Shown: positions 1 to 37,321 of the stretch, piece after piece | Position numbering within the stretch: position 1 is the stretch's first letter | How the letters are laid out: the number at the start of each line of letters is the position of its first letter | NCBI RefSeq assembly: GCF_032062105.1 | Contig: NW_026931427.1 | Location: forward strand, 1 to 64,000 | DNA from: Saccostrea cucullata | Lineage: Eukaryota | Length of the DNA stretch: 64,000 nucleotides | Direction of reading: 5' to 3' | Position numbers and translations under genes: made by a program | Notes under the pieces: generated by a model | What the model saw: only the letters and a program-made list of their open reading frames with translations | Database searches by the model: none | Told to the model about the DNA's origin: nothing

Positions 1-176
1 GTTGTAAATTGTGCTTTATAAATAATAATTAATTTCATTACAACATGTATTGGTAACAATCCTCTGTTAAAACTAATGTCCAAATAACTGTATCTCACTT
101 CTATTCTCAATGACCGTGTAGTGTAGGGCAGCGCCGCGAGAATTCCATCGGCATCGAAAGCAAGTTTTTTTGACTT

Positions 177-264
177 GCCTAGATAGCCGAGCGGTCTAGC
201 GCGCTGTTCCTGCACTGCTAGGAGACAGATTCCGAAGGTCGAGAGTTCAACCCCGGGCTGGGGC
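177..264 (+). mobile_element. tRNA-derived (Pol III) SINE-like head
   Basis: A-box TAGCCGAGCGG, B-box-like GAGTTCAACCC, loosely pairing ends GCCTAGA/CTGGGGC; irregular anticodon region, so not a bona fide tRNA. Confidence 0.55.
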
Positions 265-366
265 GGAAGTGGGTATCCATGTAAAAGTGAATTTCTTTGT
301 GCTTTCTATATTAATATTTCTTCACTTAGGGCAGTTATGTTAGTTTAAGAGTTGTTGTAAATTGTG

Positions 367-369
<3 letters not shown>

Positions 370-447
<78 letters not shown>
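370..447. repeat. (TA)n microsatellite
   Basis: Perfect TA run. Confidence 0.98.
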
Positions 448-449
<2 letters not shown>

Positions 450-628
450 TGACTTCATAATAACGACGTCATACACTCCGCCAGTTATTGTGTAACGTTA
501 CTGTGTTACTCCAATTGTTTATTTTGTAAAGCTTCTGAACATAGAATGAAAGGCCTAAAGCTTTAGTGAAGTTTTTTTTCGTGTTTTTCTTTTTTATTTT
601 AAGTATTTAATACCGACCACTGAGATTA

Positions 629-630
629 TC

Positions 631-690
<60 letters not shown>

Positions 691-692
691 TC
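629..692. repeat. (TC)n(TTTC)n compound microsatellite
   Basis: Seen directly; explains the spurious ORF 607-795. Confidence 0.97.
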
Positions 693-938
693 CTCGATAT
701 AGGAACGGGCAGGACAATTTGAACATAACTAATACAGTTTTCAATGTAATTTGCAAGAAGTATTCGAGCGTGTTAACAAAAGTGTGTGACGTCACAAGTG
801 AATTTTAAATATATTAATATGTAAATTACTCTGGTCTAAATAGAGCATATATTGGCCTCATATAAAAGTTTGCCTGTGCTAGTGCAAATATTATCGTGAA
901 AGTAGAGATAATCTTTTGACTGCTTACAGGATAACCAG

Positions 939-948
939 ATGTCTTCAG
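939..948 (+). CDS. Putative upstream coding micro-exon (M-S-S-g) of the ART-like gene
   Basis: tgcttacag|gataaccagATGTCTTCAG|gtaaaa; the phase-1 donor joins the 3244 acceptor to give MSSDESW in frame. Confidence 0.45.
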
Positions 949-2059
949 GTAAAAGAGATTTTACATTCATATACATGTAAACATTTATCTGAAACCATTG
1001 ATTTTATTCTTGAGAACCAGGTTATAATTATCACAAAAGGCAGGTTTTATTACAAGTAGAATGAATAATGTCTTTTTTTATGATATAGCATCTATATATT
1101 TGTTGTTCAGTTTTCATTTCATTTGATTTTTAGACTGAATCAGATAGTCCTTTAAATATCATTTTATTCAATTTCAATCCCTTTATGGCATTTTCTTTGA
1201 CAAATATATGCTTTATTACAGAACCACGCTTTGCGTATAAACGCCATTTCTTATTTCCATTGCCTTGCCCCTAGGGTAAAATTGAAATTTTTAAAGACAC
1301 TCCGTACATTTATCATTACAAATTTTCTTAGTTACCCATGAAATGTTACAAAAATAGTTTTAGGACGGAGATACTGTGACAGGTAGATTTTATATATTAT
1401 CATAGCTTAAACTTCTTTAAATTGCCTTTATCATGTAAAACCTTTCAAATACTCGCATTTTTTCGTCATGGACTATTAATTGTAAATGAATCACTTTTGT
1501 ATTGCGCTTTCTCGTCATGGGTTCTTAATTGTAAATGGATCCATAATAGTTTATAAGTTAACAATAAGCTTACTTGTGTGACACTTCCAGGGTTAAAAAA
1601 AACATTCAAAAGACAAAACAATTGCTTGCACTAGTGTGGGTTTAAAGCATAAATTATACATAGAAATGCGCATGCGCGGCTTATGTTCCCTCCTTTTTTG
1701 TTTTTTTGCACCAGTGGAAAACGTAAAGCTAATTTCGAGAAAAAGAGCTCTGCAGTTCAAGAATAAATAGCCTAAAGGTTTCCTTCTTTGTTTAGTCCTT
1801 GTTGCTATATTGTAATATTTTTCATTTCATACCATCCAATATCTTTCAAGGTTCTTTGACGTTCTCAGAAAGGTCTGATATAAAGTATAAATTTTTACCA
1901 AATAAAAGTATTTTAAATTTATTTATTTCAAGAAATTAAGGGCTTTTTATCTAACCATAGATACCAATGTTTTAAAAATGATATGAAATTAGAAGGGATA
2001 AAAAGTGTTTAGCAATGATTAAAAAATTTTGGTAAACTAGGCATTCTAAAATGATCGAA

Positions 2060-2365
2060 GAAGGATATGGAAAAAACGAACAGTATTCAATATTAAAGTC
2101 CATAAAACAATACAAAATAAGAAAAGAGCAAACACGGACCTCCGAAACATCAGAGGTGGGATCAGGTGCCATAGAGAAGTGAGCATCCCCTGCTGACCGG
2201 TCATACCCGCCGTGTGCACCTTGTCATGATCGGGAAATAACGGGAGAATCCGTCGTCAATTCAGTGTATAAATAATGGACTAACAATTAGTATGAAAAAA
2301 AGTCAGTCAGCATGTGACTCAATGTTAAATTGTATTTGCTGGCAAGGTAATTGTATCGACCATAG
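2060..2365 (-). mobile_element. Penelope-like element 3' end fragment
   Basis: Reverse complement closely matches 42730-42975 (ggcacctgatcccacctctgatgtttc), which follows a PLE RT C-terminus. Confidence 0.7.
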
Positions 2366-3243
2366 AACTTAAGAGTTGAGGCCACAGCAGTAAATAATAT
2401 AAATCTAAGTACCTAATGAGTACAAAAAAATTTCGATTTCTTCAAAGGCTTGGATACCTATGATTTAAATTTGTAAAATGTGATTGCTTATAAAATTTTA
2501 ATCAGAAAATACATGGTACATGTAGGTGTAAAGTATAGTTGTATGCATTCCCTGAAAATTTTCCGTACATTATAAATATGATAAAAGAAAGTTTAAAGAA
2601 TTATCTTGGGTAAAAAAGACTAAACACTACTTTGAGAATTCAGAGACATTTTTATGAGCATTTTCAATTATGAATGCCTGATTTTCAGAACCTGAGGTTC
2701 GGGGTACCGTATAAAAATAATAATATAAAAATAAAGTATCTCGCCTTATTTTTTGAGATATTGATCTTTTTAGCTTTACAGCTTATAAGTGAAGTTTTCA
2801 TTTGTCATCTTTATGGGTTCATTATCCTGTCCTTAATGAATTTGTAGCCATAATTTAAAAAAAAAAATGTAATTCTTTAAGTTGGTATGTATATTTAAAA
2901 AACATTGCAGAAAATGAAAAATGTTGTAAAGTTTTAGATTAACTCATTTTCCCTAAAAAATATAATAAACTCTAAAGATGAAGTTTGAAGAATTATCTCG
3001 GGTAAATACAATTTTTTTTTAGAAAAATTCAGAGACATTTTTGTGAGCATTTTCACATTTATGTAGAGATTGATTCGACTAATTTTAAATTAAATGGGAC
3101 GTATTTTTCTTTTTATTCTGTAAAAAATTGGCGCAAAACTGTTTTTTTGGTACCTACTCAACCTTGGTGATAAATATTGCCCGGCTCCTAATAAGGTCAG
3201 AAATTTAAAAAGAAAGAATTGTAAATTTATTTGTGCTTTTCAG

Positions 3244-4316
3244 ATGAGAGCTGGAATGAATTCCATTACACATCAAACGAAGGAAGATATCACCATTGGC
3301 TCCCTAATGACCTAAAGAAATTATTGCCAGGACCCTTACCAGAGGGCGGAGAACTGCCGGAATATTATACAGAATTTGACACATTGATTCATGTTACAAC
3401 TTTAGAAAGTGCCAATGGTATTTTGAGAGATGGTTTCAAACCGAAACCAATTGTCGATTATTCAGTTGTCAGCCAAAAATGTCCATTATTGGATCCTGAG
3501 CGAAACAATCTTCAAACGAGGCCACATCATCCCGTTTACGGTGTCAACGTAATTTGGTATGGACCATATATGAAAGAAAAACTCCGAGATCCTGATTCAT
3601 ATATGGAGAAGTATGGGAATGTTGTTTTCAGCATGTATCGTCTAGATGGGTTCGAAGGGATTATACGTAGTGATCTAAAATTCTACTTCATAGAAGTTAT
3701 AGAGTTTATCACGAGCTCCGCTTGTAGGATATTGGTGTCAACTCGTGATTTTCCATCCTTAAAGAAGTTGGAGCCGTTAGAACTCGGTGGTCCGCTATAT
3801 GTACAGAAAGAAGAAGATACGAACAGGTTGTTCTATATAAATAGACTTAAACGTCATGATGGAAACGTAAGAAAAAATACACTTGAAATAATCCAAGAGG
3901 AAATGTTAGGTGAACCAGGAAATTTTAGTCATAAAGAACATTTTAAAAATCACTTTGTAACTTTTAAACATTGCCTATTTCCTAAGCAAAATGTCGAAAA
4001 ATTGGTTGTGCAGAGGCCTTTGGAAGAGAACATGATATCATTTCTGTTGCCAAACATTTTGAAAGTCGCCATAACTATGGCCACTGTCAGAAATCAAAAC
4101 AAAGTTTTTCTTCTATTACCTTTTGATAATGAAGAAACAGGAAATGAAAAACTTCTAAACGAGCTGAAAAAAGTACACAGAGAAGCAATGATAAGATATG
4201 AAGATCTTATGAAGGAGCGCAAGGTAGATACAAAGTCACTCATTGTCAATGCATTCCAAGGCATCTTGCACATGAGTAAAAAAGACATTGTTGACTCGTA
4301 TCTGGAAATGTTTTGA
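3244..4316 (+). CDS. Large coding exon; uncharacterised protein with a predicted ADP-ribosyltransferase-like N-terminal domain and helical C-terminus
   Basis: About 357 open codons in AT-rich DNA; acceptor ttgtgcttttcag at 3231-3243; motifs LIHVTTLESANGILRDGF, VIWYGP, YGNVVF, TLEII. Confidence 0.75.
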
Positions 4317-4959
4317 GTATTCCAGTTTCACAGCACTCGAAACTAATCGAATGTCTATGGGAAAAAATTGCAGAAATTCTAATGGATCCAATTGCCGAGT
4401 AAGAAAGCGTTCTTAAAAATATCATAACCGCATCATTCTGGACTCCAGCCTTTGAACCATCTAAACCTCAAACATCTGAGTATTAAGTCTTGCAAAGTCT
4501 AGGAATATATTGGTCCAGTCATGAATTATCTTGTTTAATGACTACAAACTGGAACTTTGCTATGCAAGTGAGAGGCCACACCAAGCTGAAAGACTCGCGC
4601 AATCCTCTGTTTTTATTCCAGAAATATCTATCAATATTTTTTTTTTTATTTTTTATTATGATGAAGGACTTTTATCTGGTAATTTATTTCTCCCTCTTTC
4701 TCCCTCTTTCTATCAACTGGCTTGTGCTCAGGTTATGAGAAATGGCCCTTTTAACCTACATCTGTATATTAATACAATATACTTATAGAAGTCATAACTT
4801 GTATGGATCATCTTAAATATTTTTTAACAATCAAACTTCATAAAAACTTTATTACAAGTATGATAGATATTATTCTGTAAATAAAATGATTTTCTGAAAT
4901 CTTAACTTTTTATATTTAAAACTAGTAATATGCCCAAACCAAATATTTTGGTTAAAGTT

Positions 4960-6390
4960 TTTTCTTAAGTAAAGAAATCTTCAAGATCAAGGTCAGAAGG
5001 TCAAGGTTATTGATATTCAATGAAAGGTCTTGTCACAAAAATACATATGTAAATTAGGAAGCCCTAGCCCTTACCATTAAAATTTTATTGCCAAGGGTAA
5101 TGCTTTTTCATAAGTATAGAAAATCTCCGAAGTCAAAGTCAAAAGGTCATGGTTATTAGTATACAATAAAAGGCCCTGCCAAAAAGAATTCATATGTGAA
5201 GTATGGAAGCCCTAGCCCTAACTGTTTAAAGTACATCAGACACAAAGGTCAAAGGGTCAAAGTTCTTGGTATCCAATGAATTGTCTTCTTACAAGGATTA
5301 CAAAGGTGAAGATTGAAAGCTCTTGCCCTTAGCGTTTAAACGTTATGGCTAAGGATAAAGAAGATGGGCGAATAAGGCGGGCAGAATGCCTATAGTGCGA
5401 CAGATAAGAAGTGAAAATTTTAATCTCAATTGAATCCAAAATTTACTTGATATTTCTTCTAATATTAAAGTATACTTTATGTAAAATCTCTACAATTTAC
5501 AAAAATCTCGCAAAGACTAAAAATATTTGCCTATGAAAAAGCCTACACACACTAAAAAGAACAAGAACGATCATTTTCTCATACTTAAACAAAATTTTTC
5601 AATATGGGTGGGTCTTCTCTCCATTTTTTTGAAAGATGGTCCCAAAAGTGTGCGATAAATTACACATTTTTGGGTTTTCAAAAAAATGGAGCGAAGACCC
5701 ACTATACCTTAAAAGTACACTTCTATGACACAACATTAGCATCTTTCTGAGAAATACTTCAAGTGTATTAAGTTGCGGGTCATATCACAAACATAATTTA
5801 AATGCCTAAAATCACCATGAGCGGTGTAGCATAGTGGTTAACGCGTTAATCTCAAAGCAGTATGCTATTGATACGTCGAATTTTTATTGCTAGAGTTCGA
5901 ATCCCACGAATAGCATCTAATAATTTTATGAAAGAAACATTTTTTACGAGATTTTTTTTTTCTCTCAATAAAGTTTTTTTTCCCTCATAATTTCAAAAAT
6001 TTCAATAATTCGACGTTAATTTAAATAATCAATTCACATATTTGGTATGATTTCTTAATATCTGACGCTATAGGCATTCTGCCCGCCTTGTTCGCCCATC
6101 TTCTTTTTTCATAAGTACGGAAATCTTCAAGGTCAAGGTCAAAAGGTCAAAGTTCTTGGTATCCAATGAAAGGTTTTGCCACCAAAAAATACATAAGTGA
6201 AGTATAAAATTTAATGTCCTAGTTACTACTGCTCAAAAGATATAACCAAAGCAAAATTTTGGAATTTTTGTACAATAGTAGGTCAAACTCCAGGGTCAAG
6301 GTCAAAAGGCCAAATTTTGTGGTACCCAAATAAAGGTCTTGTCACAAGGAATACTATGAAAGTCATAGATTCATTAAATCAAAAGTTATG
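4960..6390. repeat. Degenerate satellite-like array (GGTCAAGGTCAAAAGGTCAA...GGTATCCAATGAAAGGT units) of HINE type, split by a TIR insertion
   Basis: Unit recurs near 4985, 5130, 5247, 6128 and 6293. Confidence 0.7.
5360..6103. mobile_element. Non-autonomous TIR element with an internal tRNA-like Pol III promoter
   Basis: TIR GAAGATGGGCGAAYAAGGCGGGCAGAATGCCTATAG at both ends; TAGCATAGTGG...GAGTTCGAATCC at ~5826-5905. Confidence 0.85.
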
Positions 6391-6679
6391 GGCCTTCACA
6401 GGATTTGCTCGTGACTGACCCACTTCAATTTCCATTTAAGTTTATGAACTTATTATTTATTTCTTAGTTATATCTTAATTCGTTGAATCGACTTAAGAGA
6501 CAAAATATTTGTATAAAACAACTCAAAAGAAGGTGTTGCAGAAACTCGCGATTATTCCCCATATATCGAGAAGGTCATTTAAATACTGTGTTATGTCTAA
6601 TTAAGAAATAAATAACAAGTTTATAAAGTTCAATGGGAATAGAAGTGGGTCGGTCACGTGATCAAATCATGTGAAGGCC
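6391..6679. mobile_element. MITE with ~80-bp imperfect TIRs
   Basis: GGCCTTCACAGGATTTG... versus ...CAAATCATGTGAAGGCC. Confidence 0.85.
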
Positions 6680-7040
6680 AAAGGCTACAGAGAAGAACTA
6701 TGTTTACGGCGAGTACTAGTATTTCCTGCTTGATATATAGCGAAGATTTATACAATGAAGCGCATTGAAGTGGTAGAATATTCTATTTGGATCACAGGCC
6801 TTTGGCAAGCTTAAAATATTTATGTGTAAAAAAAAAAATAAATAAATAAAGGTATGGAACTCTTACACTGGGTACCCAATTTCGTTAATAAAATATTTCT
6901 TTATTCTAATGCTCTAAAATTTGACCTTCTTCTTCAATCAATTCATAGAAATACATTCTTCAATTCTACCAAAGCTCATTGAGAAATTCCGTATATTTCT
7001 TGAGATATTAGTAGTACATGTATAAACCGCCTAGACGGGG

Positions 7041-7247
7041 AGGTCAACTGAGTTCACTTTTTATGCAAATGAGGTAAAATATTCTGGATTCTGATTGGCT
7101 AGGGAGATAAAGAGGTCAAGGGAGTGCATTTTTGACCCCCCCCCCCCAAGATCTTGGATAGGGAGGTCAATTAAGTACAAGCCCGGGGGCTAGGGAGGTC
7201 AACTAAGTACAGCCCCTGGGTGGGGATAGGGAGGTCAACCAAGTACA
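7041..7247 (+). promoter_or_regulatory. Array of five AGGTCA-n4-AGTNCA (DR4-like) elements plus octamer and CCAAT box
   Basis: AGGTCA at 7041, 7113, 7164, 7196, 7232, each followed after 4 nt by AGT(T/G/A)CA; ATGCAAAT at 7063-7070; ATTGG at ~7094. Confidence 0.7.
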
Positions 7248-7487
7248 GCCCATGGGGGGAAATAAGTGAGGGAATCCTCCTTAGACGCATAGACTTAAAA
7301 AACCTTAGCCTTCTACACTAGGTATTTGACGTTGGCACTACGTGTTGGCATCGATTCAAGTATTTGATTGTGATGTCACGTTTCATTCACAGTCAGCCTT
7401 GCTGTATTTTCTGAAAACGGAAAAAACAATAACAATATCACACAGTGTGAAAAAGTATTTTATTCAGAGTAAAATACATACAGAATT

Positions 7488-7709
7488 TCAGTCTGGGGAA
7501 GTTTCCTCTTGTGGGTGCTGGTGGGACTCTCCTATATTTTTCTCCTGGTCTGCCTCCATTCCTAGATTACGAATCTCTTTTTTTACTTCTTTTATTTCCT
7601 GCATGATGGTGACCATTTCATCTAAGATACCGCATATCAAACTTCTTTCATCTACTTTCATAAGATCCTGTGTTTCTGGTACGGTCTCTTTGGTATTTTC
7701 TTCTGCCAT
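7488..7709 (-). CDS. Small acidic coiled-coil protein (73 aa), probable Polinton accessory gene
   Basis: ATG-started ORF; minus-strand TATATAAAA ~60 bp upstream (7769-7777); minus-strand AATAAA ~25 bp after the stop; heptad-like MVTIMQEIKEVKKEIRNL. Confidence 0.6.
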   Translation of the reverse strand: MAEENTKETVPETQDLMKVDERSLICGILDEMVTIMQEIKEVKKEIRNLGMEADQEKNIGESHQHPQEETSPD

Positions 7710-7768
7710 ATTTTACGTCTGTCAAGGTCCAAGTGCTAACGAAGAGTGAGCGTAGATTTCCAGCGCTG

Positions 7769-7905
7769 TTTTATATACGGTTTGGTTGTTTAGGGTCGTG
7801 TGCATAAATAAGTTTGACTTACGTTTGATCGTACTGTGTACGTCTTTGTACACAGTCTAGTCAGCGAGCTACCTATGCATTGTGACGTCATACACTGTAT
7901 AAATA
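7769..7905. promoter_or_regulatory. Divergent promoter: minus-strand TATA, CRE site, plus-strand TATA
   Basis: TTTTATATA 7769-7777; TGACGTCA 7883-7890; TATAAATA 7898-7905, ~55 bp before the ATG at 7960. Confidence 0.6.
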
Positions 7906-8215
7906 TAGCTTATCTCCGACTTTCATCTCATTCTACTGTTGGAGCCATCTCCTGTCGGCATGTAATTTACAAGAGAAAAAATGTTACATGCCCAACAACT
8001 GATGAGATGGAGAACAAGGGAGAGAGAATGAGACAGAATTATATCTCGACAGAGAACGAGAGAATTACTTCTTTGGAAAACAAATGCCAAAATATTAGAG
8101 AGAAGAGCTCGACTAGAACAACAACAACAACAACATCAACAAAGGACTAGGGCGCATGAGGGACCAAAGTCACTTATCTATTCACCCCCGAAACCCAAGG
8201 ATATTTCCCAGTATT

Positions 8216-9844
8216 AGAGATGTTTCTGAATATGATTCGAATCCAATCTGAAAATGAATCTGAATCCGAGAGATCCCGATCCCGATTGGAAAACTGAAAA
8301 AAAAAAATTAAAAAAAGAATATTTCCTATTTCTGCTTTTAAAATTTTCACTGGACATGTAAAAATAAGGGAAATGAATAGTGGAAGGTGTTTATATTTTT
8401 TGTCATTGTGATTGTTATTGTTATAAATTGTACAAGTCAAATTCTAATTTTAGACTGAATAACAGAACACGTACCCTTTCAATTCATGGAAAAACCTGTT
8501 CGAAAATATTATTCTTGTATTTTTCATTAGCTTACTTTATTTGTTCCTCGCAGGAATTGTGATCTGAACCTTATTTTGAGTAAATGTATTAAGAATCATC
8601 TTAAATATTTAGACGTATTGGAAATATTATGTGTCGGATATTTTTTTTCAACAACATTATCCTATGGCCATGCACTTTCTCGCAGCCCAATTTTTTGTCG
8701 AAAGCAAATCGATTGATAATCGTCATGAAATCGAAACATCTGACAGTTTTCCCTTATATTTACATGCTCTTGATTCCGCCAATCCACGTGCTACAAGCCC
8801 TGCTTCTTGACTCTATTTGTCCCGCCCTGCACATTTCTAAACAGCACCTTTTGATAACCAGGCCCCAGGATCATTAAACATCTTAAGCCTAAGTCAAAAT
8901 CTACATGTTGTACTTACATGTTGTGGATGTCAAGCAGATCAAAATCAAAATATATGCTTCAACATTAATTCACTGAAGTGTTGTTATTTACAAATTTATT
9001 CATTGTAATTTTATCTCTGACAAAGACTTTAGAAATGTAAATATTGTGAAGTTTACAATGCGACAATTAATAGAAAGGGTGGGAAACCCCCCCCCCCCCC
9101 CCCCCCCCCCAATGTCTCCCTCAGTTCTTATAGACCTATATCATATCATTAATTTCGACGTCTTCAAATAAGAAGCCGATCAGTAGCGATCAAGAGAGCA
9201 AAAAATAGCCCCCTCCCTTTGATTATGTTGTTCATTAAATTGTATGATACTGTGAATTCCTAAATAAACGCGTGGAATTAATTATCGCGTTATTTCGCGA
9301 GAAGCACTACACGGAAACTAAAATTACTCGCCTTTATTTTTATGGTGCTGAAATCTATGTAAAATCTCTTGACAAACCTTCCATTCGCGAATTCTTATTC
9401 TCGCGATTTTTCGCTAAAAAGCACATTCGCGATAATAAGAACTCGCGAAAACTAAGGAATCTACAGCATACATATAAAGTAAACAAATATTACCCCCTCG
9501 TTCCTTGGAAATCACATACCCCTCGCTCATTTGCTAGCGCGAACATGTCACCTCCCATATATATCAGAATTTCTCCCGATTCCCTTGGTCGAAGAGAATT
9601 AAACCCCAACAAACCACGCCTATGGGAGTTTATTGACATGCCCTTCCCCCTTCGTCACCTCCCTTAGCAAAATACATATACAAGTATTTATTGATATATC
9701 AAAGACAAAATATAAGTAATCATACTCTCGGTGTATAATTAAGAGTTATATCTATTTTCAAATTGGGATCGGAATCCCTCCGATTCAGGTTCGTTTCAGA
9801 TTCATTTTCAGAGTCGGATTCGGTTCATATTCAGAAACATCTCT
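8216..9844. mobile_element. TIR element with 3-bp TSD (PIF/Harbinger-like) inserted in polB
   Basis: TIR AGAGATGTTTCTGAATATGA; ATT on both sides; removing it restores the frame cag-tat-tat-taa-gta. Confidence 0.85.
9250..9466. mobile_element. Small nested MITE rich in TCGCG
   Basis: ta|CTGTGAATTCCT ... AGGAATCTACAG imperfect TIRs. Confidence 0.7.
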
Positions 9845-11139
9845 ATTATTAAGTAAGACTCAATCAAGCCAAACATTCCAGAAAATTCAAAACGCATGAA
9901 GATGTCTACACTGTCACTTTTAAAGAGTTTCCAGAGGAGGAAAACAGAGGATTTGTTCGACTATTATTTAGAAACATGCTACAAACGGTCAAATCCGAAA
10001 TGCAGTGTAATCCTAATGATTTCCTACGCCTGAACATACGCCACGATTCTTTGAAATATAACATTTGGTACGAGTTTACGCAATGTAAACATTTGAACGA
10101 GGACGTCATTTTGAACAAAATAGAAGCCGTTCAACACTCCAAGCAAGATTTTAAACTGGGCAACGGCTCCATGGAATTCGACCTGTTTCATGTCAATTAT
10201 CCATATGGCAGTGGTGGGGACAGAACCAAGCACTTGATACTGAATAAGAAGAATTTCAAGAAGAGGAAACAATTCATCGTTCAGATTGACAATCCCTAGA
10301 ATAAGTTTTGTTTGGCTAGAACGATCGTCGTTACCCGGTTACACAGTCAAAAACCGGAACATTCATTCCACGAGTGGGAAAACGATGGCTTCGTATGCGG
10401 AAAGGAGATTTTAAGTCCTTGGACCAGAAAAGAGAAGCCTTAGCGCTCATGTAACAGGTCGGGTTCGATATCACTCAAGCTTGTGGACCCGAAGAATGGG
10501 GGAAATTACAGCAGGTATTAGCCCCTCGTTATCGACTGAAAATATTTCAGTTCAAGTCCACTTCCTCTCAACTCTGTTTAGAGCCGATTTACAAAGGCTG
10601 GGGAGATGGAACTTTTTTGAATGTTTTGTTAGACAACCATCATTACGATGTCATCCTATCTATGCCAGGAGTGACGGGGAATCAAAATTACTGTGATCAT
10701 TGCGATGTGGGTTACAGTCATGTTACAGAACATCGGACTCATCGCTGTAATTTTTGTTTAGGAGTCACGCCATGCCTTGAAGACGGGAGTCGCACTCAAT
10801 GCCAGCAATGCTAAGGATTTTTTTTAAGAACAGGACCTGCTATGAAAACCATTTAAGACCCCATAGTAAGAATACTAGCACCAGTGTATGCAGTTTAATG
10901 GGATGATGCGAGCAATGTCAGTCATGGATGCCTTAGAAATTATTCCCTCATCACAAGTGCAGAAACAGTGTAAGATCTGCAAGAAAATCGTCGATTCCGA
11001 TCATCAGTGCTTCGTTCAATTGAAGCCTGAGAAGAAGAACAAGGGGAAAGACACCTTGCAGGTTTACATCTATTTCTATTTCGAATGCACTCAGGAAAAC
11101 GGTATTCACATCCCTAATCTGTGTGTGGCACACCGCGTA

Positions 11140-11690
11140 CAGTAAACGTGGAAATTTTGACGATATGCTAATTTTGACTTTATTGACGATTTTTCTTTTC
11201 TCGTCAAAATTTACACACTCGTCAAACTTCATATCATATATAGCATCACAACAGACACTGACCATTGCACAACATTACCACTAAATTTTCTCGGGCTTCC
11301 CCTATTAAAACTAGATCAAGGGTATTGTTAATTTCCTCTGCAATTAGTTATAAAAACAGAGTGATATATAATCACATTTTTAAAAAACATTGAATCTTAA
11401 CTGAAATACTGCAGGTGTAACTTAGTGTAATTATAACACCGTGCTAGTTTGTTACCTTGGGAAATTGACCGCTTATAATAAAAAGACATTGCAAGAGGGC
11501 AATTTATTTTACAATTTCTTTTAGATAGTTTATACAATCTTACATATTGTAGATGGTCTGTACAAAACTTAATTTTAGTAATTCAGACGCCGCCTTTTTA
11601 TTCCCTTGAATTCAAAGATAAATAACTCTCGAATTAAATATTTCGTCAAAATTAACACTCGTCAATTTTTGTAAACAAAAAATCGTCAAT
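11140..11690. mobile_element. Truncated MITE replacing part of the polB exonuclease domain
   Basis: Starts ta|CAGTAAAC; TTGACGA/TCGTCAA repeats; polB homology stops after CVAHRV and resumes at WY..QQTGKVLDFQKE; ExoII missing. Confidence 0.7.
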
Positions 11691-13791
11691 TGGTACATGT
11701 ACGAACAACAGACCGGAAAAGTGCTTGATTTTCAAAAGGAGTTTTTAGAGTATTGTATTTCAGACGTCGATATTTTACGACGATGCTGAACTCAGTTTAG
11801 AGCCACCCACAAGAGTTTGGTGCTTGTAGACCCTTTCAACCACGTTTGCCAGTGAAGCCAATTTAGCCTACCGTAGAGGATTCATGCCTTAAGAGACCTT
11901 TGCCATCATTCCTAACCTGGGGTATAAACCAGCGCGACAATATTCAGCCAAAGCCTGCTGGTGGCTCACCTGGATGACTCAACAGAGCGGATGTAACATA
12001 CGACATGCAAGAAACGGGGGCGAAGTCAAAATAGGACTCAAACCGTATACGAATTTTATGGCTGCTATTGGCACGGATGCCCCACCTGCTATCCTAATTT
12101 ATAGATCCTCACCGGACCCAATTTACTTACCAGAAATTAAACGAGGAAACTCTCAGAAGGAGTTCGGTCTTGGAAGGAATGGAGTACACCGTCCGTAGCA
12201 TCTGCGAGCACAATTTCTATCAGCAAGTGCAACGAGTTATGAGTTTACAGAATTTTGCACGAGACCTGGACATTCCCGATCCTTTGACCCTCCGAGAAGC
12301 CCTGTACGGAGGCCGAAACAATGCGATGCGATTACAAGTACATGTATATTGTGAGGAAGTTAAGGAGTTAATTGGACGTCTGTATCTTATTCCCGTACAC
12401 GTTAAAACAAAGACCTTTTCTTCTGGGCATCCTCAGATCATCACAGACGAGTTCCAGGACGTGAGAAGTTATTTTGGCCTCATTCACTGTCGGGTTTTAC
12501 CACCCCAAACCCTCTTCACCCCGTTTTACGTTATCGCATGGGAGGCAAGTTATTATTTCCCTTATGCCGAACTTGTGCTAAACAACAGGACTCTACCTCT
12601 CAGCATCGATGTCAACACACCAACCAGGAACGCAGTCTCAAAGGCACCTGGGTGATGACAGAATTACATATAGCTCTGGACGTGAGATATACCTTAGAGC
12701 GAATATACGAAGTTTGGCAGTATCCAGAAAGCAGTCAGGATTTATTCAGTCCTTACATCGATACCTTTCCCAAGATAAAACAGGAAACTTCCGGACCCCC
12801 CCCCCCCACCCTCGAGTGACAGACCTTAGAACAAAAACAAGATTACATTCGGCAAGTCTTACACAAAGAAGGATTTATGATGGACCTGCTCAGTATCGAG
12901 AAGAATCCAGTGAGAAGAACAATAGCTAAACTCTTTTTAAATTGTCTTTGGGGAAAATTTGCTCAACGATTGTTTTTACCCAAAACCAGATACCTAGCCG
13001 AAGAAGAGGAATTACAACAACTCTTACAAGATTCGACCCTCGACATCAAAGGTGTATAACTCTTAGACAATAAAGAGCAGCCTGATTTGGAAATGATGCT
13101 GATGAATTACCAAGAGAAATAGGAATTCGTAGAAGAGTGTCCCTTTGAAAATGTGGTACTGGCCTGTTTTACGACCGGTCATGCCCGCTTACACCTCTAC
13201 GAGACTTTAGAACCTTTAGGAGATCGGGACCTTTATTTCTATACAGACAGTCTTATCTACCAACATCAGAAAGGAGCCTTTTAATCCTTAACTTTGGGAA
13301 TAATTTAGGGGAATGGACCGACGAATTAGACGGGGACCACATCATCAAATTCATGTCGGGAGGCCCTAAAAATTATACTTATGTCACAGCCAAAGGAAGA
13401 TCCGAGTCAAAAGGCTTGACTCTCAACCATCGAGCCTCCCAGATCGTGTCCCCAGAGACTTTAGAAAAAAAGCTTAAGAAAGAAATTGATGAAATTCAAG
13501 TGGCGTATCCCTACAAAGTACAGAGGACCTGTCAACATGAAGTCAAGACTGTCCCTTTGGAGAAACAATATAGAATTGTGCATGATAAGAGACAATTATT
13601 GTTAACCCATTATAACACTTTACCTCATGGTTATTGATGTGATTGTTCAATGTTGACATTGAATTAAAAATGGATTTGCTGCTATTTTTTTCTTCTTCAT
13701 TACAGAAAAGGTCTTGGTTTTAGGTGAGGGATATATAAAAAGGGTATTGATATGTTTATTGTTGACTTTAAATAAAATGGATTTGTTTTCA

Positions 13792-13793
<2 letters not shown>

Positions 13794-13830
<37 letters not shown>
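13794..13830. repeat. (GT)n microsatellite flanking the 9.2-kb element
   Basis: Seen directly. Confidence 0.97.
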
Positions 13831-13835
<5 letters not shown>

Positions 13836-16800
13836 CGTGAAAGGTGTAAAACGGGGACATTTGTTTGTTTACACACCTTCCAACCGGGGACGACCTTCCA
13901 ACCGGGGACGTCCCCGGTTGTCTTCGATTAAAAATAGCTCCAAATTCGAAATCAGGGATGTCTAATTACCCCAAAAAGCCGAAAAAATCCATTTTTCAAC
14001 ATGTTGAAAAAATGTCCCCGGTTAGTTAGAATTAAAAGATGTGTGTTAGTGTGAACTTTTCATAATTATCGAAAGTTCGTATTTGGGGTTTACACACGTG
14101 TCCCCGTTCGTATAGTGAAAAACGTGTCACGTGACCTTTCCTGAAACAAACATTACCTTGATATATATTCTCTTTCTTGTTTTTAAGTCCATATTTTTTA
14201 AAAGGTTGAATTAACATATATTATTTTTCGTAACTACGTTATGACCATCAGTCAGTCTGACAAACATTAATCATGTCTATGGAACATCTATTTTGGTTAT
14301 AGATGTATTTAGACTTAGTTGTTACGCATACATGTGAATTAAGTTTCTTAATCGAGTCTATCATTTTTCTAAAGGAATGAAGTTTATTTTAACTCAAAGG
14401 CGTCAGAACGGGGGGGGGGGGGGGGCTTAGCCCAACTTTTTTTTTCTAAATATATACTTAAGCTTAGTATAGACATTGAACATTGTTGCCAATAGCCCTC
14501 CCACTTTCCAAAAACACGTCGCAGTATAGGTTCTAACCTCACACCCCACCCCTCACGAAATAGGATTTTCGTGTTCGGGAAATGGACATTTCCCCCCTTT
14601 TTGTGCTTGTCAGAGATTTTTTTGAGGACATATATTAATTTTTTTTTACACTTAGCCCCGCCCACAACTTTCAATTTGCTTCCGAGGCCAATGCAACTTA
14701 TGATATACGATTAATTAACATAATTTGGGGCCGTTTGTGCGTAATAAACTACGTAGTATTACAGTTTAATGATTGAAGAATAAGCAGTCGCGATATATTC
14801 AACATAATATCCGTGGGCGTCAAAAGCAAATTAAACGGGGGGCCACAATGCAATGGGGCTAAACCCCAATAAAACCGTAAACCCCTTTTTTCAATGCACA
14901 ATTAGTGTATATCTGTGCAAAAAAGTAGAGGATGCAAGCTGATAATTCGAAATAAATAATTGTTTACATTAAAGTTTGAAATCTGTAGTAGGGTTGATTT
15001 TCTTAAGCTTAAACATAATTCTTGATTTAGTGGGAAAATTATACCCATTTAGATTAATAAGTTTACGTATTATTTGCAGAGTTAATTAAAGATTTTTTTG
15101 TTAAATAATACACATTTCACCAGAATTGAACTTTGTCATGCATTTTGGTGGGAGGGGGGTTACAGTGGGGTGAGAGTAGGGTTGGGATTGGAAAGTTACA
15201 GCGTACAGTTTTTTACCATTTTATTTGTAAGTTGTTATTTGCATAGCTAAGGATGCTAGTATACATGCATGAGACTAAACTGAAATTCCTTCAATGTGCC
15301 TTGTAATAGTACTGTGGCAAATGCTAGCTGCAGAACTGTAACTCTCCGAAAAAAATATTTTTTCAGACCAGAGAGCTACAATGTACAGCCCCATCCATTG
15401 TAAAAACTGTATATTTATTGCCTGAAAAAAACTGGATTTATTCTTCCATTTTTTTTCCTTAATTGCAAAAAGATATATTTTAAGAAAAATCCTTACTTCT
15501 ATATAAAGTACTCTCCTATACATGTAGGTGACAACTGCACGAAGTACATTGGACCGAATTATCTTGCAATTCAAATAAATAAATAAATAAATAGTCGATG
15601 ATTTTTTTTCATGATATCAACTTCAAGTCCAGGAGGGCTATTAACAAAATTATAACATTTGTTGTTGCGGAAACATTGAAACAATATGTTAGCAACACAC
15701 GGTTAGTAATATTTTGAGATGACACTTGAAAACTATGGAGAAATAAATCAAGAAACAGTGCGCAATAAATATACCGTTTTTACAATGGTTTGCATTGTAA
15801 CTCTCCTATCTGTCAAAATTTATTTTTCCGGAGAGCTACAGTTCTGCAGCTAGTAAGCAAATGCGTGTGGAATGATTAAATTTTAAAATAATGTTTCGAC
15901 AGTCTGAGATTTCTGAAGGGGAGAGATACTGAAGGAATCTAAAAATATCAATAAATCCCTCGCTTTATGAAAACAAAATGTTTAGTGTAATGCTGATGAG
16001 AAGGAAGTGGGGGGAGGGGGGGGGGTCTTATGCTGACTATATACCACAGCGATTTGATCATACCGCTTAGAATTCGAAGTACGTGAAGACGTTATGTTGA
16101 AAAACCCCTATAGATTGAATCTGTGCGATTCATAAAGTCAGCTTATATAGATTTTTACAATAAATCTGATCAATTAAAAGGACACTTTCTCTATAATTAA
16201 CCAGTAACCATTGTATATACTCGTATAACCGTTATATCTCCTACTTCTATTTTTAAATTAAAAAATTCATACTTTTATAATACACAGAATAAATAGCACA
16301 AAGGGTTCTTAATCTAGTGCCATCAGATGTTCATAGACAAAAAATCAGCATGCATTAATTACCAGGGGTTTTTGGAAGATATCAAATTATGAAAATTTTT
16401 GCATTATTCAAAGAAAACTATATAAAAATCATATATCACAATTTCCAGATTTTTTTCATCAAAATTTGTTTTGGAAGAGGTGTACGAATCCATACATAAA
16501 CATTTAAGTATTGCACACAGATCCTTCATTTAGTGAAACTCTTCAACCCTAGGGAAGAGCCCAATAAAGTTCAAACTATGAGTTATAAAGGTCAAAATTT
16601 CAAAGCGGCATCGTCGTTATTCAGTGAGAACATAATGACATTGCGTGCAACAAATTCAGTTTCCAATTATTCAGATAACTTTTATAACACATATAAAATC
16701 TAAAAAAGATGGGTTTTTTTTTAATATAATTGTCTTCTTCTTAAATTTTCTGTTTATACACCATGAAGTTGCCTTTGTTCTATTCCATAGGCAGATCTAG

Positions 16801-17252
16801 GAATTTCGACCGGGGGGGGGGGGTTGTTAGACTACTGATGTCTAATACTTTTTTCTATCAAAAATGTCGGATCGTCATTTAAAGGAAGTAAATAATTTCT
16901 TAACAGCTAAATATAAATAAAAATCTTTTCAAATTGTTTCATGCATATATTTTTAAGAATAGGTACACTTCTGTCGATGTAATGTAATTACTTTAAAATT
17001 GATTTATGCTCTTGTGGGTTTGGTGATATGGGGATGGGGGTTCCACATTTACTGTATTTAATTCCTAAACAAAATGCAAACTCAATTTCAAGCTTTCATC
17101 CGAACAAAACAAAAACAGAATCAAAAGCAATTGTTAACAGAAAATAGTATTTTAGATATCTTTATAATTACTTCCTTTAAAAAAATATTCTAGTCAGTAT
17201 TTTTGAACCTGTAAGAACTTTAAGCCAATTGATTTCGATAATCAACAATGTC

Positions 17253-17715
17253 ACCAGCGTGGCGCAGTGGTTAGAGCGACTGCTCTAGAGTCGCGGAGTA
17301 AGGAGTTGATCCTTACGTCGCGGGTCCGAATCCCAATGGGGGACGTGGAGACTGGACCTTCGGATGAGATCGTTTAAACCTACATCCCGTGTCGCAGTAG
17401 GTGCTGGCACGAAAGAGATCCCTCCATGCTAAATGGCCCTGAGTCGCAGAACTACGCAAGGATTTGATTCTTACGTCGTGGGATTGAATCTTACCGTGGG
17501 ACGCGTGAGACCGGTCCTTCGGAGGAGACCATACAAAGCGAGATCCACTGTTGCAGTATATGCTGGCACGAAAAAATATCCCTCACTGCTCAATGGCCTT
17601 GATGAGTGCCGAAGCTAGGTCAAAATTTGCAGCTCTCCACCGGCAAGTGGTAGCGTATCCATATTACATAATTAGTGAAAAAGTCTCGAGAGGGGACGTT
17701 ATATACAATAAAGAA
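17253..17715 (+). mobile_element. tRNA-derived SINE with a duplicated Nin/Deu-like central domain
   Basis: A-box TGGCGCAGTGG, B-box-like GGTCCGAATCC, CTTCGGATGAGA..TAAACC motif present twice in diverged form; 3' part matches the SINE at 36135-36478. Confidence 0.8.
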
Positions 17716-17924
17716 ATAGAATTCATACACATATTTTCCTCTATTGTATTGTGATTATTTATACACAATTTTCCCCTTTTTTGTAATATTTTTACTCAAT
17801 TCTCCTCAACTGAGGTTTTAGAATAATTCATAAACATGTTGCTTCTTGTACTATTATAAGCCTAGGGTAACGTATACATACATCATTCACATTTTTTTTT
17901 ATATATTTTTATGATTTATACAGG

Positions 17925-18260
17925 AATGTCCCCTTTTGTTTTGTGATCATCTGTACTCACAATGTCCCCTATTGTATTGTTATTTTTTATACACAAATGT
18001 CCCCTATTGTATTGTAAATTTTTACACACAAAATATGTCCCCTATTGTGTTGAAGTTTTTCATACACAAATGTCCCCTATTGTAATGTGGGTTTTTACAC
18101 ACAAAATATGTCCCCTATTGTGTTGTAGTTTTTTATACACAAATGTCCCCTATTGTTATGTGGATTTTTATACACAAAATATGTCCCCTATTGTGTTGTA
18201 GTTTTTTTTATACACAAATGTCCTCCATTGTATTGTGATAATTTTTACACACAGTTCCCT
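17925..18260. repeat. Minisatellite, ~33-35-bp units (AAATGTCCCCTATTGT...TTTTATACAC)
   Basis: About 9-10 tandem units. Confidence 0.92.
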
Positions 18261-21200
18261 ATTTGATTAAGATGTTTTTTTCCCCGAGTTTTATTCACAA
18301 ATGCTTTCTATGGTTTTGCTATATTTTACACGATCTTCTCTCTACTGTACGGCTTACTAATATTCTTTATATCCATTTGTCCTCTAGTTTTCTGTTATAG
18401 GCCTAATTAAATGTAACACATAAAAATATCGGTCTTTCCCCCTTAAAACCTCACCCTTATCGGAAAACTGACTCTATCTAGTAGGATTTCCCTCCGAAAA
18501 TCACGCACCAGAGTCAGTTTTACGTGGGGGAAATCCTACTCTGTGAAGTAGTTATACGAGGGTTATCCCAAAATTTCGTAGACTGAGCTCATATCTTTTA
18601 AAGAAATTAATGTATCTTTATAAAATTTCCGGGGTGGATAAAGCGTGTTCTTGGCAGATAAATTACGAGGTTTTATGATGTTTACTTGAAAACTTTTCGA
18701 GTAATAACATTTAAAGTGATAGCGTTCTTTAACACCCGGAGCAATCTGCAACGTCAAAAAATATCAATGTCAACAGTTCAAATTTTTGGAGAAAATATTT
18801 CAATTACCAGAATCAAATTCTTAAATGAAACGAAACGGTTAATACCCGGTAGTTATAAATGTGAAATATCTTAATTACTATGATATGATCAAACATTAAA
18901 ATATGTAAACAAAGTATATGCATGTACATGTTTGAAATAATACTAATTTGAAAACGCTACATTTCTACGGGCTTTCGTCTGTTTTCTCTAAGGGAGTTGC
19001 ACAATGCAACTCTTGCCCATTTCTTAGCCCCGTCTTTTATTTTAGTTACTGTTATTCAGATATACATAGAGAAACCGATTTAATCATTTAAATACTCAAA
19101 ATGAGATAAAGTTTCCTAGTCTACCAAACCGTTATGACTGGAACATTTTTGTAAGAGTGAATTCAGGATCAAAACACTTGACCAGAGTCCAGTGCGCCGC
19201 CTGTGCCAACGCAGCCGCCATATTACAGAAAGTCGGATTTCAACCTCATGTACATAAAACGTTATAAAAATCATATTTATCAAAGCATAAACACCAAAAT
19301 TTGGGGAAATGTACTTAATAGAGCAGTATTAAGAATTTTCACTTCCATTTAAAAAATACGGGGTAGTAATTACTTTTCCGTAGGATAATATACCAAATTT
19401 TAATTTCAACTCTTGGGTATTGCGCCGCCTACCTACACCAGACAATGAAATGTGTCTTTTAAAATGGAATAATTTGTGTAGTTACTCCATATTCGTCCAT
19501 AACTTTATTAGATAGTGCTGGTTTAATCTATATACGAAGTTTCTTTAATGTATGACATAGGGTTCCTACAAAACAACGCTTGTCTACGGAATTTTGGGAC
19601 AACCCTCGTATAGCGCGATTTCCCCCAGGGCTAATGGTGTTCCCAATAAAAAGTTGCTGTACTTATGGTTTCAGGGGGATGGGGCAGCACATTGCTACAC
19701 GTGTTCTTTCTACAAAATGGTGACCAGATATATGTGTTGTTCACATACGAATACAAAGATTGAAAATAAAAAAAAAATTAAGCTCATTTTTCTCAACAAC
19801 AATCAAATACATTACATCAGTGAAACGGGGTGGGGTAGGGTTGGTTAAGGTCTCCTTTGCGTCTGTCCTTCTGTCTCACTGTCTATCTGTCCCCCCGTTT
19901 GTCTGTCTGTCCCAAAAATTTTTTCACAATTTTTTTTTTCTAAATTTCTGAAATAGTAAGCTGTTTTTGGAATGGAAGTGTATTTTGATGAGTAGCATTT
20001 CACTTTAATATTCTTTTTAAAGAAATACGACCGTTTAAATTTTCAAAGGTTTTCTACAATGTTTTTCTAATCGATTGGATATAGCGAGCTAATTTTTTGT
20101 TTGTGAAATTGCCGTGAATTGACTAATCCCCGTGCATAAGTCAAATGCGCTAATTACTGCTTCGGAAGCTAATTCCCCGTTATCTGTAGATCTCTTGATT
20201 TAACTTTTGTATCGGGAGGTGTTTAAATCAAATGAGCTAGTTGCTGACCCAAAAGCTTCTTCTCAGTTATCCATAATCCTCATTAATATTTTTTTTATTT
20301 TTGTATTGGTATAATTTAACAGTAAAAATGTATATCATTAAGAGACTAAGCAAGATTCCAGTTCCCCTTCTAAACCATGTCCTGACGTTTGGGAACTGGA
20401 ATCTCAGACCTGCGGCGTAAGGATAATTTTACTCCAAGAAAACCATTGTCAACTGAGGCGCAGTAAAGGTTGTCAAAGTTTTCGAAGGTTGAAACACTGC
20501 ATGCTTTATGCATTATAATATTCTTAATATTCTATGAAAATATATTACAATGAACCTTGTGTGCATGAATTCTGCACAGTCAATATTTTTTGTAATATCA
20601 CCGTCATCAAGCAGAGTTGATTGTTGCTACGTTTGAGGGCGTGATTTCATTAGTCAGTGGATAATAGTGGCTGCGTCTCGGGAAATAGTCCTGGTCATGG
20701 GGAATTATAATCTTGCTAACTCACCAATTATATACTTTTTGACTGTTTTATTATATTGATATATAATTAAAGAAAAATACAGGATTACGAATGAACGGGG
20801 ATTAACTTCCGGACTAAACGCACGGGAATCAGTCTATCTTTTGGGGATTAGTCCATTCACATGTACACCTACCGCTGAGCCATAAGATTGATTGATTGAT
20901 TGTATGTTGTTTAACGCCCCTCTCGAGAATTTTTCACTCATATGGAGACGCCCTGAGCCATTAATACTTCTAAACCTTCTAATCTGAGGAGATTTGCATT
21001 TCTTTAGAAAGCTAAACTTTTGGGTTGGGACTCAATGATTTGAAATAAAATTCTAACTACACAAGTTGAAATACACTCATTTTCTTTTAAAAATCTGTTT
21101 GTCGTTTATTTAATAATAATGCAGCTGTGGTTTATATAGACTCTATAACAACGTTGCATAAGAAAGAGAGAAGGCGTAATTTGGCTCTGGGGTGATTTCG

Positions 21201-23002
21201 CCTGGAGGGAGGGGGAGGGATTCTACTCTAGGGGAAATCCATCTCTATAACACAAGTGCTTACTTTTTTCAGATATATTTTTAAACAATGAGGACGAGGG
21301 TGCTCGCTAGTATTCATATCTCAAGCAATCAGATGTTTTGCAAAAAGTTGGTTAAAATTGCCGTATTTGCAGCAGTCGCAACTGAAATGTCTTGTAAATT
21401 TTCTTTTATAATTTAAGCAACGATTTTGCAAAACATATTTTACTCCTGATTTTTTTTTTAATTTACGTTAATTTAGTTCATTTGTATATTTCTTATAAAA
21501 AAAAATGATTTGAATTTAATAAAATGTAGTAGTCATAAAAATCTGTTGCAATTAAAAAACAGGTAATACTTCCGGATCATCGGTTTTCTGTGTGAAACAA
21601 AAAATAGATAATTGTTGGAAGGTTTTGAAATTAAAAGATAAGATAAATTAATTCCTTTCTAAACTGTCTTTGCTTTGAAAGATTTTTTTATTTATTGTTA
21701 TACCTTAAAATAATTGTTCCTATACATATCTGTACGATAAAAAGATTTTAAATGCTTAACTGAGCTGGCATAAAAAAAAATCTATATTAGACGCTGAGTG
21801 AGATGTTGGACCGGTCTATGAGATGTTGAACCGCTTACATCACAGAATGGGCGGAGCTTAATCACATTTTCATTCGTTGGTGTTTAACAGTGACGGATCT
21901 TAGGTTACATTACGGAAGACAGTACAAAATGCATGTATGTCCAAAAAATTAAGAAATGAAAGGTATAACAAAACATTTATTGACTATGTTCTCGAGCAAA
22001 ATGCGTTTTGTCGACCCTCGAACCTAACGGCCTTTTGGTTCTTTAGGTTCTTGGGTCCGAACTTAGTCAATAAATGTGTAATGTTTTTATAAAAGTGCCT
22101 CAAAGATGCAATGTATAAATGTAAATAATTTAAAGAAGTCGTCGAACCCCGCTTCTGTAATAATGACGAGTATACATGTATGTAAATGCACTGGATTTGA
22201 TTTTAAAGTGTTTATCGATTATATTTAATAGCATGACCATAATCAAAAGGCCAAATTAGATTCTTCTCTTCTTTTTTTTCATTTTTAATTGGGTCATTTT
22301 GCGGAGTGGTACTATGATTGCCCTCTTCAGACATTGTGTTATATTTTTATAGTTGCAAGTATGTCAAATGATAATCATTTTACTTGTTCAATACTGAACA
22401 AAATATTTGAAAAATAAAAAAAAAATAAAGCAAATGCATAAACATCAATGTCAGGCGTGAACTTAATTGCAATCACCATATTTAAATGCCATCAATCATG
22501 CCAATGCCACTGCGGCAACAAGGTCAGTGATGTCAAATTGATAAATTTAATGCAGATAGCTTAATTTTAAAACTATATAAGAAAACTTAAATATATATTT
22601 TCACCATGCAATAACTATTCATTATTTCCATATTTGATTTAAAATCTTAAGCATTCAAGTGCCTATGAAGACGGGGGTCTTAATCAGTGATGAAAACCGG
22701 TGGTAATAAGTGAATAAAGGGCACAAAAGAGGGTGTTTTGTTCATTTTGGAAAATGTCCCCGTTTAGATACAATATAACAAGAACTGGTGTGTGAATATT
22801 AATGAGTGTAAAATAGGTCCCCGTTTGTGCTGTGAAATGTGCTGCGCTTAAAATCAAAGATATTGATATGTTTTCATTATATTTGTCATCAGGATTACAG
22901 GGTGATTAATGTTTTAGGTCAAAAGTCAATGAAATGTTAAAAATAAAGAAGTCCCCACTTTGACAGTCTTTAACCCCTGTCCCCGTTTGACACCCTTCAC
23001 AC

Positions 23003-23005
<3 letters not shown>

Positions 23006-23035
<30 letters not shown>
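23006..23035. repeat. (GT)n between the two tandem elements
   Basis: Seen directly. Confidence 0.97.
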
Positions 23036-23039
<4 letters not shown>

Positions 23040-26000: not shown

Positions 26001-26467
26001 AGGCAGATCTAGGAATTTCGACCGGGGGGGGGGGGGGGTTGTTAGACTACTGATGTCTAATACTTTTTTCTATCAAAAATGTCGGATCGTCATTTAAAGG
26101 AAGTAAATAATTTCTTAACAGCTAAATATAAATAAAAATCTTTTCAAATTGTTTCATGCATATATTTTTAAGAATAGGTACACTTCTGTCGATGTAATGT
26201 AATTACTTTAAAATTGATTTATGCTCTTGTGGGTTTGGTGATATGGGGATGGGGGTTCCACATTTACTGTATTTAATTCCTAAACAAAATGCAAACTCAA
26301 TTTCAAGCTTTCATCCGAACAAAACAAAAACAGAATCAAAAGCAATTGTTAACAGAAAATAGTATTTTAGATATCTTTATAATTACTTCCTTTAAAAAAA
26401 TATTCTAGTCAGTATTTTTGAACCTGTAAGAACTTTAAGCCAATTGATTTCGATAATCAACAATGTC

Positions 26468-26930
26468 ACCAGCGTGGCGCAGTGGTTAGAGCGACTGCTC
26501 TAGAGTCGCGGAGTAAGGAGTTGATCCTTACGTCGCGGGTCCGAATCCCAATGGGGGACGTGGAGACTGGACCTTCGGATGAGATCGTTTAAACCTACAT
26601 CCCGTGTCGCAGTAGGTGCTGGCACGAAAGAGATCCCTCCATGCTAAATGGCCCTGAGTCGCAGAACTACGCAAGGATTTGATTCTTACGTCGTGGGATT
26701 GAATCTTACCGTGGGACGCGTGAGACCGGTCCTTCGGAGGAGACCATACAAAGCGAGATCCACTGTTGCAGTATATGCTGGCACGAAAAAATATCCCTCA
26801 CTGCTCAATGGCCTTGATGAGTGCCGAAGCTAGGTCAAAATTTGCAGCTCTCCACCGGCAAGTGGTAGCGTATCCATATTACATAATTAGTGAAAAAGTC
26901 TCGAGAGGGGACGTTATATACAATAAAGAA
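26468..26930 (+). mobile_element. Copy of the dimeric SINE within duplicate 2
   Basis: Matches 17253-17715. Confidence 0.8.
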
Positions 26931-27139
26931 ATAGAATTCATACACATATTTTCCTCTATTGTATTGTGATTATTTATACACAATTTTCCCCTTTTTTGTA
27001 ATATTTTTACTCAATTCTCCTCAACTGAGGTTTTAGAATAATTCATAAACATGTTGCTTCTTGTACTATTATAAGCCTAGGGTAACGTATACATACATCA
27101 TTCACATTTTTTTTTATATATTTTTATGATTTATACAGG

Positions 27140-27475
27140 AATGTCCCCTTTTGTTTTGTGATCATCTGTACTCACAATGTCCCCTATTGTATTGTTATTT
27201 TTTATACACAAATGTCCCCTATTGTATTGTAAATTTTTACACACAAAATATGTCCCCTATTGTGTTGAAGTTTTTCATACACAAATGTCCCCTATTGTAA
27301 TGTGGGTTTTTACACACAAAATATGTCCCCTATTGTGTTGTAGTTTTTTATACACAAATGTCCCCTATTGTTATGTGGATTTTTATACACAAAATATGTC
27401 CCCTATTGTGTTGTAGTTTTTTTTATACACAAATGTCCTCCATTGTATTGTGATAATTTTTACACACAGTTTCCT
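27140..27475. repeat. Copy of the minisatellite within duplicate 2
   Basis: Matches 17925-18260. Confidence 0.92.
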
Positions 27476-32197: not shown

Positions 32198-32438
32198 NNN
32201 NNNNNNNNNNNNNNNNNNNNNNNNNNNNNNNNNNNNNNNNNNNNNNNNNNNNNNNNNNNNNNNNNNNNNNNNNNNNNNNNNNNNNNNNNNNNNNNNNNNN
32301 NNNNNNNNNNNNNNNNNNNNNNNNNNNNNNNNNNNNNNNNNNNNNNNNNNNNNNNNNNNNNNNNNNNNNNNNNNNNNNNNNNNNNNNNNNNNNNNNNNNN
32401 NNNNNNNNNNNNNNNNNNNNNNNNNNNNNNNNNNNNNN
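32198..32438. other. Assembly gap
   Basis: Run of N. Confidence 1.
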
Positions 32439-36985: not shown

Positions 36986-37321
36986 TCCAGTCATCCTTAA
37001 AATAAAATAATTAATTATTCCCTTTAAAACGAAAGCAAAACAGAAAGTAAAGTCTCTGTAGTAATTTCGGTGTTTTAAGAAAAAAGGCTGAGCATGCAAT
37101 ACCCAGAATAATATATGTACTATGTAGACAAAAATGCTTCAAATCCCTTAAATTATAATCGCAACTTCCTTGATAAAAATGCTAAAATTTTCTCAGCTCA
37201 TGAAATAATTAACTATTTGTCGAACTTTCAAAATACTCAGTGTACTTCCATGAATGAATAACTTACATCCGGTAAAGGGAGAAGTAATTAAAACACAATT
37301 TAGATAAAAATAATAAAAGAG

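Follow-up and report, generated by a model that had tools for sequence, protein, structure and literature searches.

The window analysed here is a stretch of 64,000 nucleotides of the oyster Saccostrea cucullata (contig NW_026931427.1, positions 1 to 64,000, forward strand). Near its beginning lies a spliced gene, with its large exon at 3244–4316 (+). It belongs to a eukaryotic family as yet without a name, and is probably a host gene encoding a divergent intracellular mono-ADP-ribosyltransferase, whose product likely binds nicotinamide adenine dinucleotide (NAD+). The exon structure, the family to which the gene belongs and the conservation of its residues are observed; the fold and the position of His53 are predicted. 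An initial annotation had proposed an ADP-ribosyltransferase (ART) with a PARP- or DarT-like motif set. The predicted ART fold and the register of a histidine agree with the ART part of that proposal; membership in the PARP and DarT families was not upheld, as no hidden Markov model (HMM) match was obtained.

Gene Structure

The coding sequence lies in a stop-to-stop frame of 363 codons (3225–4316, +), in which the motifs HVT (residue 53), ILRDGF (63), VIWYGP (106), YGNVVF (127) and TLEII (216) follow each other in one large exon, in the order first noted; residue numbers throughout are those of the spliced product of 360 amino acids. Since a splice acceptor AG occupies 3242–3243, exon 2 begins at 3244, as had been suggested, and extends to 4316 (+), comprising residues 4–360 and an in-frame stop. 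An ATG at 3244 does not share the coding frame of exon 2. The true start codon is located 2.3 kb upstream, in a coding mini-exon of 10 nucleotides (939–948, +) consisting of three codons, the first being the start codon, and one base, with a phase-1 donor GT at 949; this is the only occurrence of the pattern ATG, two codons, one base and GT[AG]A within positions 1–3243. The mini-exon was found also in contigs C8303 and C11249, which carry versions of the same locus, and, with identical phase, in the paralog L003. The latter is identical to the NCBI model P0001 across all 401 exon-2 residues, and P0001 begins with M-A-S-G. In the P0001 cluster, two Logan members, on contigs of 1.5–1.9 kb, carry this start in joined form, which implies that spliced transcripts of the paralog probably exist. 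The intron (949–3243, +; GT..AG) measures 2295 nucleotides, the corresponding one in L003 about 116. It contains a high-copy repeat of 315 nucleotides (about 2057–2374), with about 91–92% identity to many contigs. Neither a signal peptide nor a membrane segment or hydrophobic leader is evident in the predicted protein, and an intracellular location is therefore assumed.

Family and Conserved Residues

The gene had been described as orphan-like, which proved incorrect: clams, shrimp and chytrid fungi have relatives, and the oyster genome itself contains paralogs, with matches on 6 contigs representing at least 4 loci (window/C8303/C11249, C12628, C17514 and C12759). A phmmer search of 1.84 billion representatives yielded 56 matches at E ≤ 0.001; 5 of the 22 which were looked up have an organism name, all of them eukaryotes (Crassostrea virginica, Mercenaria mercenaria, Penaeus vannamei, the chytrid Gaertneriomyces, and Sanchytrium). 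A profile search (24 matches among 7,268 candidates) added Homarus, Cherax, Procambarus, Palaemon, Halocaridina and P. chinensis, and the oyster profile matched that of the chytrid clade with a probability of 99.8 (E 2e-30). All named members are annotated as "uncharacterized" or "hypothetical". Pfam contains no family for the query and none matching consistently across 36 or 75 members; the same was true for NCBIfam, PADLOC and PHROGs with respect to the members, and sequence searches of the PDB gave no match below E 0.1. No paper on the family was found, also when six locus identifiers were used, in a literature search which subscription papers were mostly outside; it might already be listed in Aravind et al. 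2015, or in the supplementary data or the database of 82 families that accompany the Legionella survey.

Residue counts were taken from an alignment of 75 sequences, considering only rows with a residue in the respective column. Conservation of the His, aromatic and Glu positions in homologues, on which the initial annotation had made its reading depend, was observed to differing degrees: His53 is present in 43 of 60 sequences (Arg in 15), Trp108 in 60 of 65 (Phe in 4), and Glu218 is invariant (64/64). Also conserved are T55 (43/60), Y127 (54/66), G128 (64/66), E154 (67/71), R165 (69/69), H240 (50/61) and C247 (61/64); Tyr109, next to W108, is conserved in less than 55%. Given this conservation, and a ratio of nonsynonymous to synonymous substitution rates (dN/dS) of 0.25 against paralog L003 over 248 domain codons, the motif set is more than chance.

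The loss of His53 in 17 of the 60 sequences, including all 14 rows of the decapod clade, which have Arg, raises the question of an ART-fold pseudoenzyme or binding module similar to LRRC9 or RCD1. The Mercenaria protein P0026 contains three tandem copies of the domain, the third of which is degenerate, and this points in the same direction. We consider such a role improbable, since E218 and R165 are invariant even in members without the His, and H-x-T is retained in the clade of the window; it is also retained in 8 of 8 rows of the chytrid clade.

Several other members deserve mention. The C. virginica gene model P0009 has a THAP domain fused to a truncated domain and may be chimeric. Longer fused forms were not detected among 5,700 candidates, in a search that was insensitive, since a triple-domain member of 1,106 amino acids exists. 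A divergent paralog, P0011 (L012, G000:C12759:394683-396098, minus strand), is an open frame of at least 472 amino acids with Cys in place of His53; it was placed near the His-less decapod clade, on a long branch with weak support. The tree was a quick, unrooted version of 61 domains, with 36 near-duplicates left out; the window fell into no starred clade, and thus no claim about origin was drawn from it. On contig C12628, a single frame of 539 amino acids (L021:5665-7281, +) follows the intact paralog P0001 at a distance of about 6 kb downstream; it has an adenosine deaminase domain (E 2e-15) and an IPT/TIG domain.

Predicted Fold

Conservation and predicted structure delimit a putative ART-fold domain of residues about 46–250 (3369–3983, +). 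The predicted model shows the split six-strand beta-sheet core of the ART superfamily, in the order strand 1 with H53-x-T55, a helix, strand 2 with W108, the YGN motif and strand 3, an inserted region (about 135–210) with E154, R165 and GGP, the strand of E218, and a last strand with H240 and C247. A fast-evolving C-terminal region (4014–4313, +) appeared as helices only in the first, low-confidence model (9 sequences; predicted local distance difference test score, pLDDT, 38).

In H-Y-E enzymes, as described in PMC7955679 and PMC10789625, a His binds the adenine-side ribose, a Tyr on strand 2 stacks on the nicotinamide, and a Glu on strand 5 stabilises the oxocarbenium ion. In the model, the place of this His, where strand 1 ends, is taken by H53, in the predicted NAD-ribose-binding motif H53-V-T55 (3390–3398, +). 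On strand 2 there is no corresponding Tyr; the conserved aromatic residue is W108 (3555–3557, +; model strand 102–108), which by strand order likely holds its place. The candidate catalytic glutamate, E218 (3885–3887, +), is situated on the second-last long strand (208–218) of the model and may be the equivalent of the Glu that opens strand 5, E988 in PARP1.

Structural comparison with ART folds, which had been recommended as a check, gave a divided answer: model residues about 45–245 matched whole ART cores, and Foldseek searches of the PDB and BFVD were blank at E ≤ 0.001. The low Z scores and high root-mean-square deviations, together with the lack of a sequence link, would suit an unrelated or new fold resembling ARTs only in its initial strand and helix. 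This is, however, improbable, because the matches cover the complete cores, a single fold accounts for 31 of the 34 rows, and the register of the His agrees across unrelated families, H53 projecting onto DarT1 H17, PARP1 H862 and RCD1 position 333. Provided that the first aligned segment is ungapped, H53 and T55 would correspond to H17 and T19 of DarT1 (PMC11543638).

Proposed Function

From the known chemistry of ARTs, H53 and T55 would bind the ribose on the adenine side, W108 would take the part of the H-Y-E Tyr in stacking on the nicotinamide, and E218 would stabilise the oxocarbenium intermediate, so that one ADP-ribose could be passed from NAD+ to an acceptor inside the cell. About 75 residues separate strand 3 from the E218 strand in the model and form extra hairpins with the invariant R165, E154 and GGP; part of this insertion may be an enlarged acceptor-recognition loop, for which 44 amino acids are given in DarT and 37 in PARP1 (PMC11281641). 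A protein is the acceptor we would name first, with somewhat less than even confidence; a nucleic acid comes next, although the domain is not basic and thus lends no support to nucleic acid binding, and a small molecule is the least expected.

An ART fold might also serve NAD+ hydrolysis or a Tpt1-like removal of phosphate rather than stable transfer. The structure matches, all of which lie within about 1.4 Z, include Tpt1/TRPT1, a Vibrio toxin which we take to be of RES type, and the NAD glycohydrolase SPN. The invariant late-strand Glu suits transfer and is absent from the H-H-h motif of Tpt1 as described in PMC8120803, and no Tpt1 Pfam match was obtained; such activities seem unlikely, if less so than a pseudoenzyme. 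For the transferase, a role in defence or conflict is plausible, though slightly short of an even expectation, because of the patchy range, duplication, tandem repeats, the sister clade without His and the rapid change outside the core.

State of the Window Copy

The stop at 4314–4316 is premature compared with relatives, which extend about 30 residues further; sequence homologous to their final 29 codons and stop is found at 4313–4402 (+) in another frame, following a one-nucleotide frameshift near 4310. As assembled, the window copy is without the last 29 residues, yet the whole domain is kept. The same one-base shift is present in C8303, a noisy duplicate (96.5%) of the window's initial 11.5 kb. 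Contig C11249 (91–95% identity), probably the other haplotype, is without this frameshift and has gaps of its own, of 1 and 17 nucleotides. In three unbroken stretches, window and C11249 differ by 31.7 nonsynonymous changes per 801 sites and 5.3 synonymous changes per 207, which is not different from neutral (p 0.41).

The shared frameshift, the gaps in C11249 and these rates would fit a locus in decay, whatever the function of the family and independent of the question of fold. We regard decay as possible, but hardly the likelier state, since splice sites and all core residues are intact, the assembly is prone to indels, as C8303 shows, and only 1 of 20 domain residue differences falls on the 68 conserved sites among 238 compared (expected 5.7; P 0.0085, post hoc). 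This avoidance of conserved sites, and the dN/dS against L003 of 0.61 in the C-terminal part versus 0.25 in the domain, indicate a constrained core with a fast-changing periphery.

Neighbouring Element and Origin

The virus-like element noted near the gene is real: an organellar/viral-type DNA polymerase B gene, broken into many frames (about 9850–13640), contains PF03175 in two fragments (12820–13056, E 4.4e-8; 12406–12816, E 0.006). We presume the element to be Polinton-like. It follows the gene also in C8303 and, past an insert, in C11249; an apparent lack of the element in C11249 was rejected, as it resumes after the insert. The latter (L017:2428 to L026:6392; about 14 kb), at the place of window positions 6930–6936, is bounded by inverted repeats and contains reverse transcriptase and tyrosine recombinase frames.

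Proximity might suggest that the gene is cargo of this element, or was captured recently from a virus or a bacterium, and one stretch in a prokaryote genome collection, among 5 matches, was counted as a relative by the chytrid-clade alignment, without a locus; on the strength of this single match, a bacterial relative may exist. Scans by pattern, which need near-exact motifs, gave no relative in viral contigs or prokaryote genomes, nor did tblastn searches of plasmids and phages. The phase-1 intron is conserved, the 20 kb examined at each of the three remaining paralog loci showed no translated match to the element except a dispersed repeat, and no long inverted repeat encloses gene and element within 5400–14500. 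Cargo or capture is thus very improbable; given the conserved intron and the lack of viral, plasmid or phage relatives in these searches, the sequence reads as that of a resident host gene.

Elsewhere in the window, 13799–22984 and 23003–32197 form a 9.2-kb tandem duplicate (99.3% identity) ending at an N run (32198–32438), possibly an assembly artefact, and 37307–41909 is a large inverted duplication, pairing 37307–38316 with 40923–41909 (95%) and 38479–39181 with 40235–40929 (97%).

Significance

Few eukaryotic ADP-ribose writers are known (PARPs, ecto-ARTs, TRPT1, NEURL4 and a few pseudo-ARTs). The present family, which was missed by Pfam, PDB sequence search and Foldseek and ranges over bivalves, decapods and chytrid-grade fungi, would, if active, add a writer whose His-Trp-Glu site is unusual and which comes with a natural sister clade having Arg in place of His. 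Among the animals that carry it are farmed oysters, clams and shrimp, of whose antiviral effectors little is known, and one compact domain with named residues makes it directly testable.

A bolder view would be that of an ancient, unrecognised H-W-E family of DarT-like immune enzymes which ADP-ribosylate nucleic acids in molluscs and crustaceans. Such a family could be the host writer explaining the NADAR erasers carried by RNA viruses of crustaceans and of annelids/bivalves (PMC9503650); eukaryotic NADARs are described as removing guanine ADP-ribosylation (PMC11543638). This must be considered a long shot, because another known writer is available in enzymes of the CARP-1 type, and decapod members are without the His.

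Comparison with Known ART Systems

With the PARP catalytic domain (H-Y-E) the family shares the projection of His53 onto PARP1 H862 and a compatible strand order; it differs in having H-V-T and W-Y-G instead of H-G-S/T and Y-F-A/S (PMC7955679), and none of the 75 members matched the PARP HMM (PF00644) at E ≤ 0.1. The same search gave no match to DarT (PF14487), the Q-x-E of which (PMC11281641) contrasts with T-L-E here. DarT1 and DarT2 (PDB 8baq, 7omv) are bacterial toxins which modify bases of single-stranded DNA and are linked with a DarG/NADAR antitoxin, whereas the oyster gene is a spliced eukaryotic gene with a strand-2 Trp, a longer insertion and a C-terminal region predicted to be helical. 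Tpt1/KptA/TRPT1, RNA 2'-phosphotransferases defined by H-H-h and an N-terminal winged-helix lobe with RH-R-R (PMC8120803), have His where the oyster family has Trp on strand 2, and the family possesses a Glu in addition; the model has no match to the lobe, only the NAD domain (chain 109–210) being aligned. Judged from sequence and model, the family would work like an H-Y-E-type ART, but it falls outside PARP, DarT and Tpt1.

The divergent bacterial ARTs OspC3/CopC and RhsP2 differ from this host gene, which has no PF06128 match and no secretion context. Pierisin and CARP-1, the latter a clam protein, are likewise animal ARTs and act on nucleic acid; they are of the R-S-E (ARTC) class, whereas the oyster family has His and no S-T-S. 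Gig2 has PARP-like H-G-T and G-V-Y motifs; the oyster query has no Pfam family match. Closest by motif description is the Lmac_3114 family, portrayed as DarT/Tpt1-like and, in that account, reported only from bacteria, with Hxx, FFW and xxE, i.e., His, a motif-II Trp and Glu (bioRxiv 10.1101/2024.07.30.605764).
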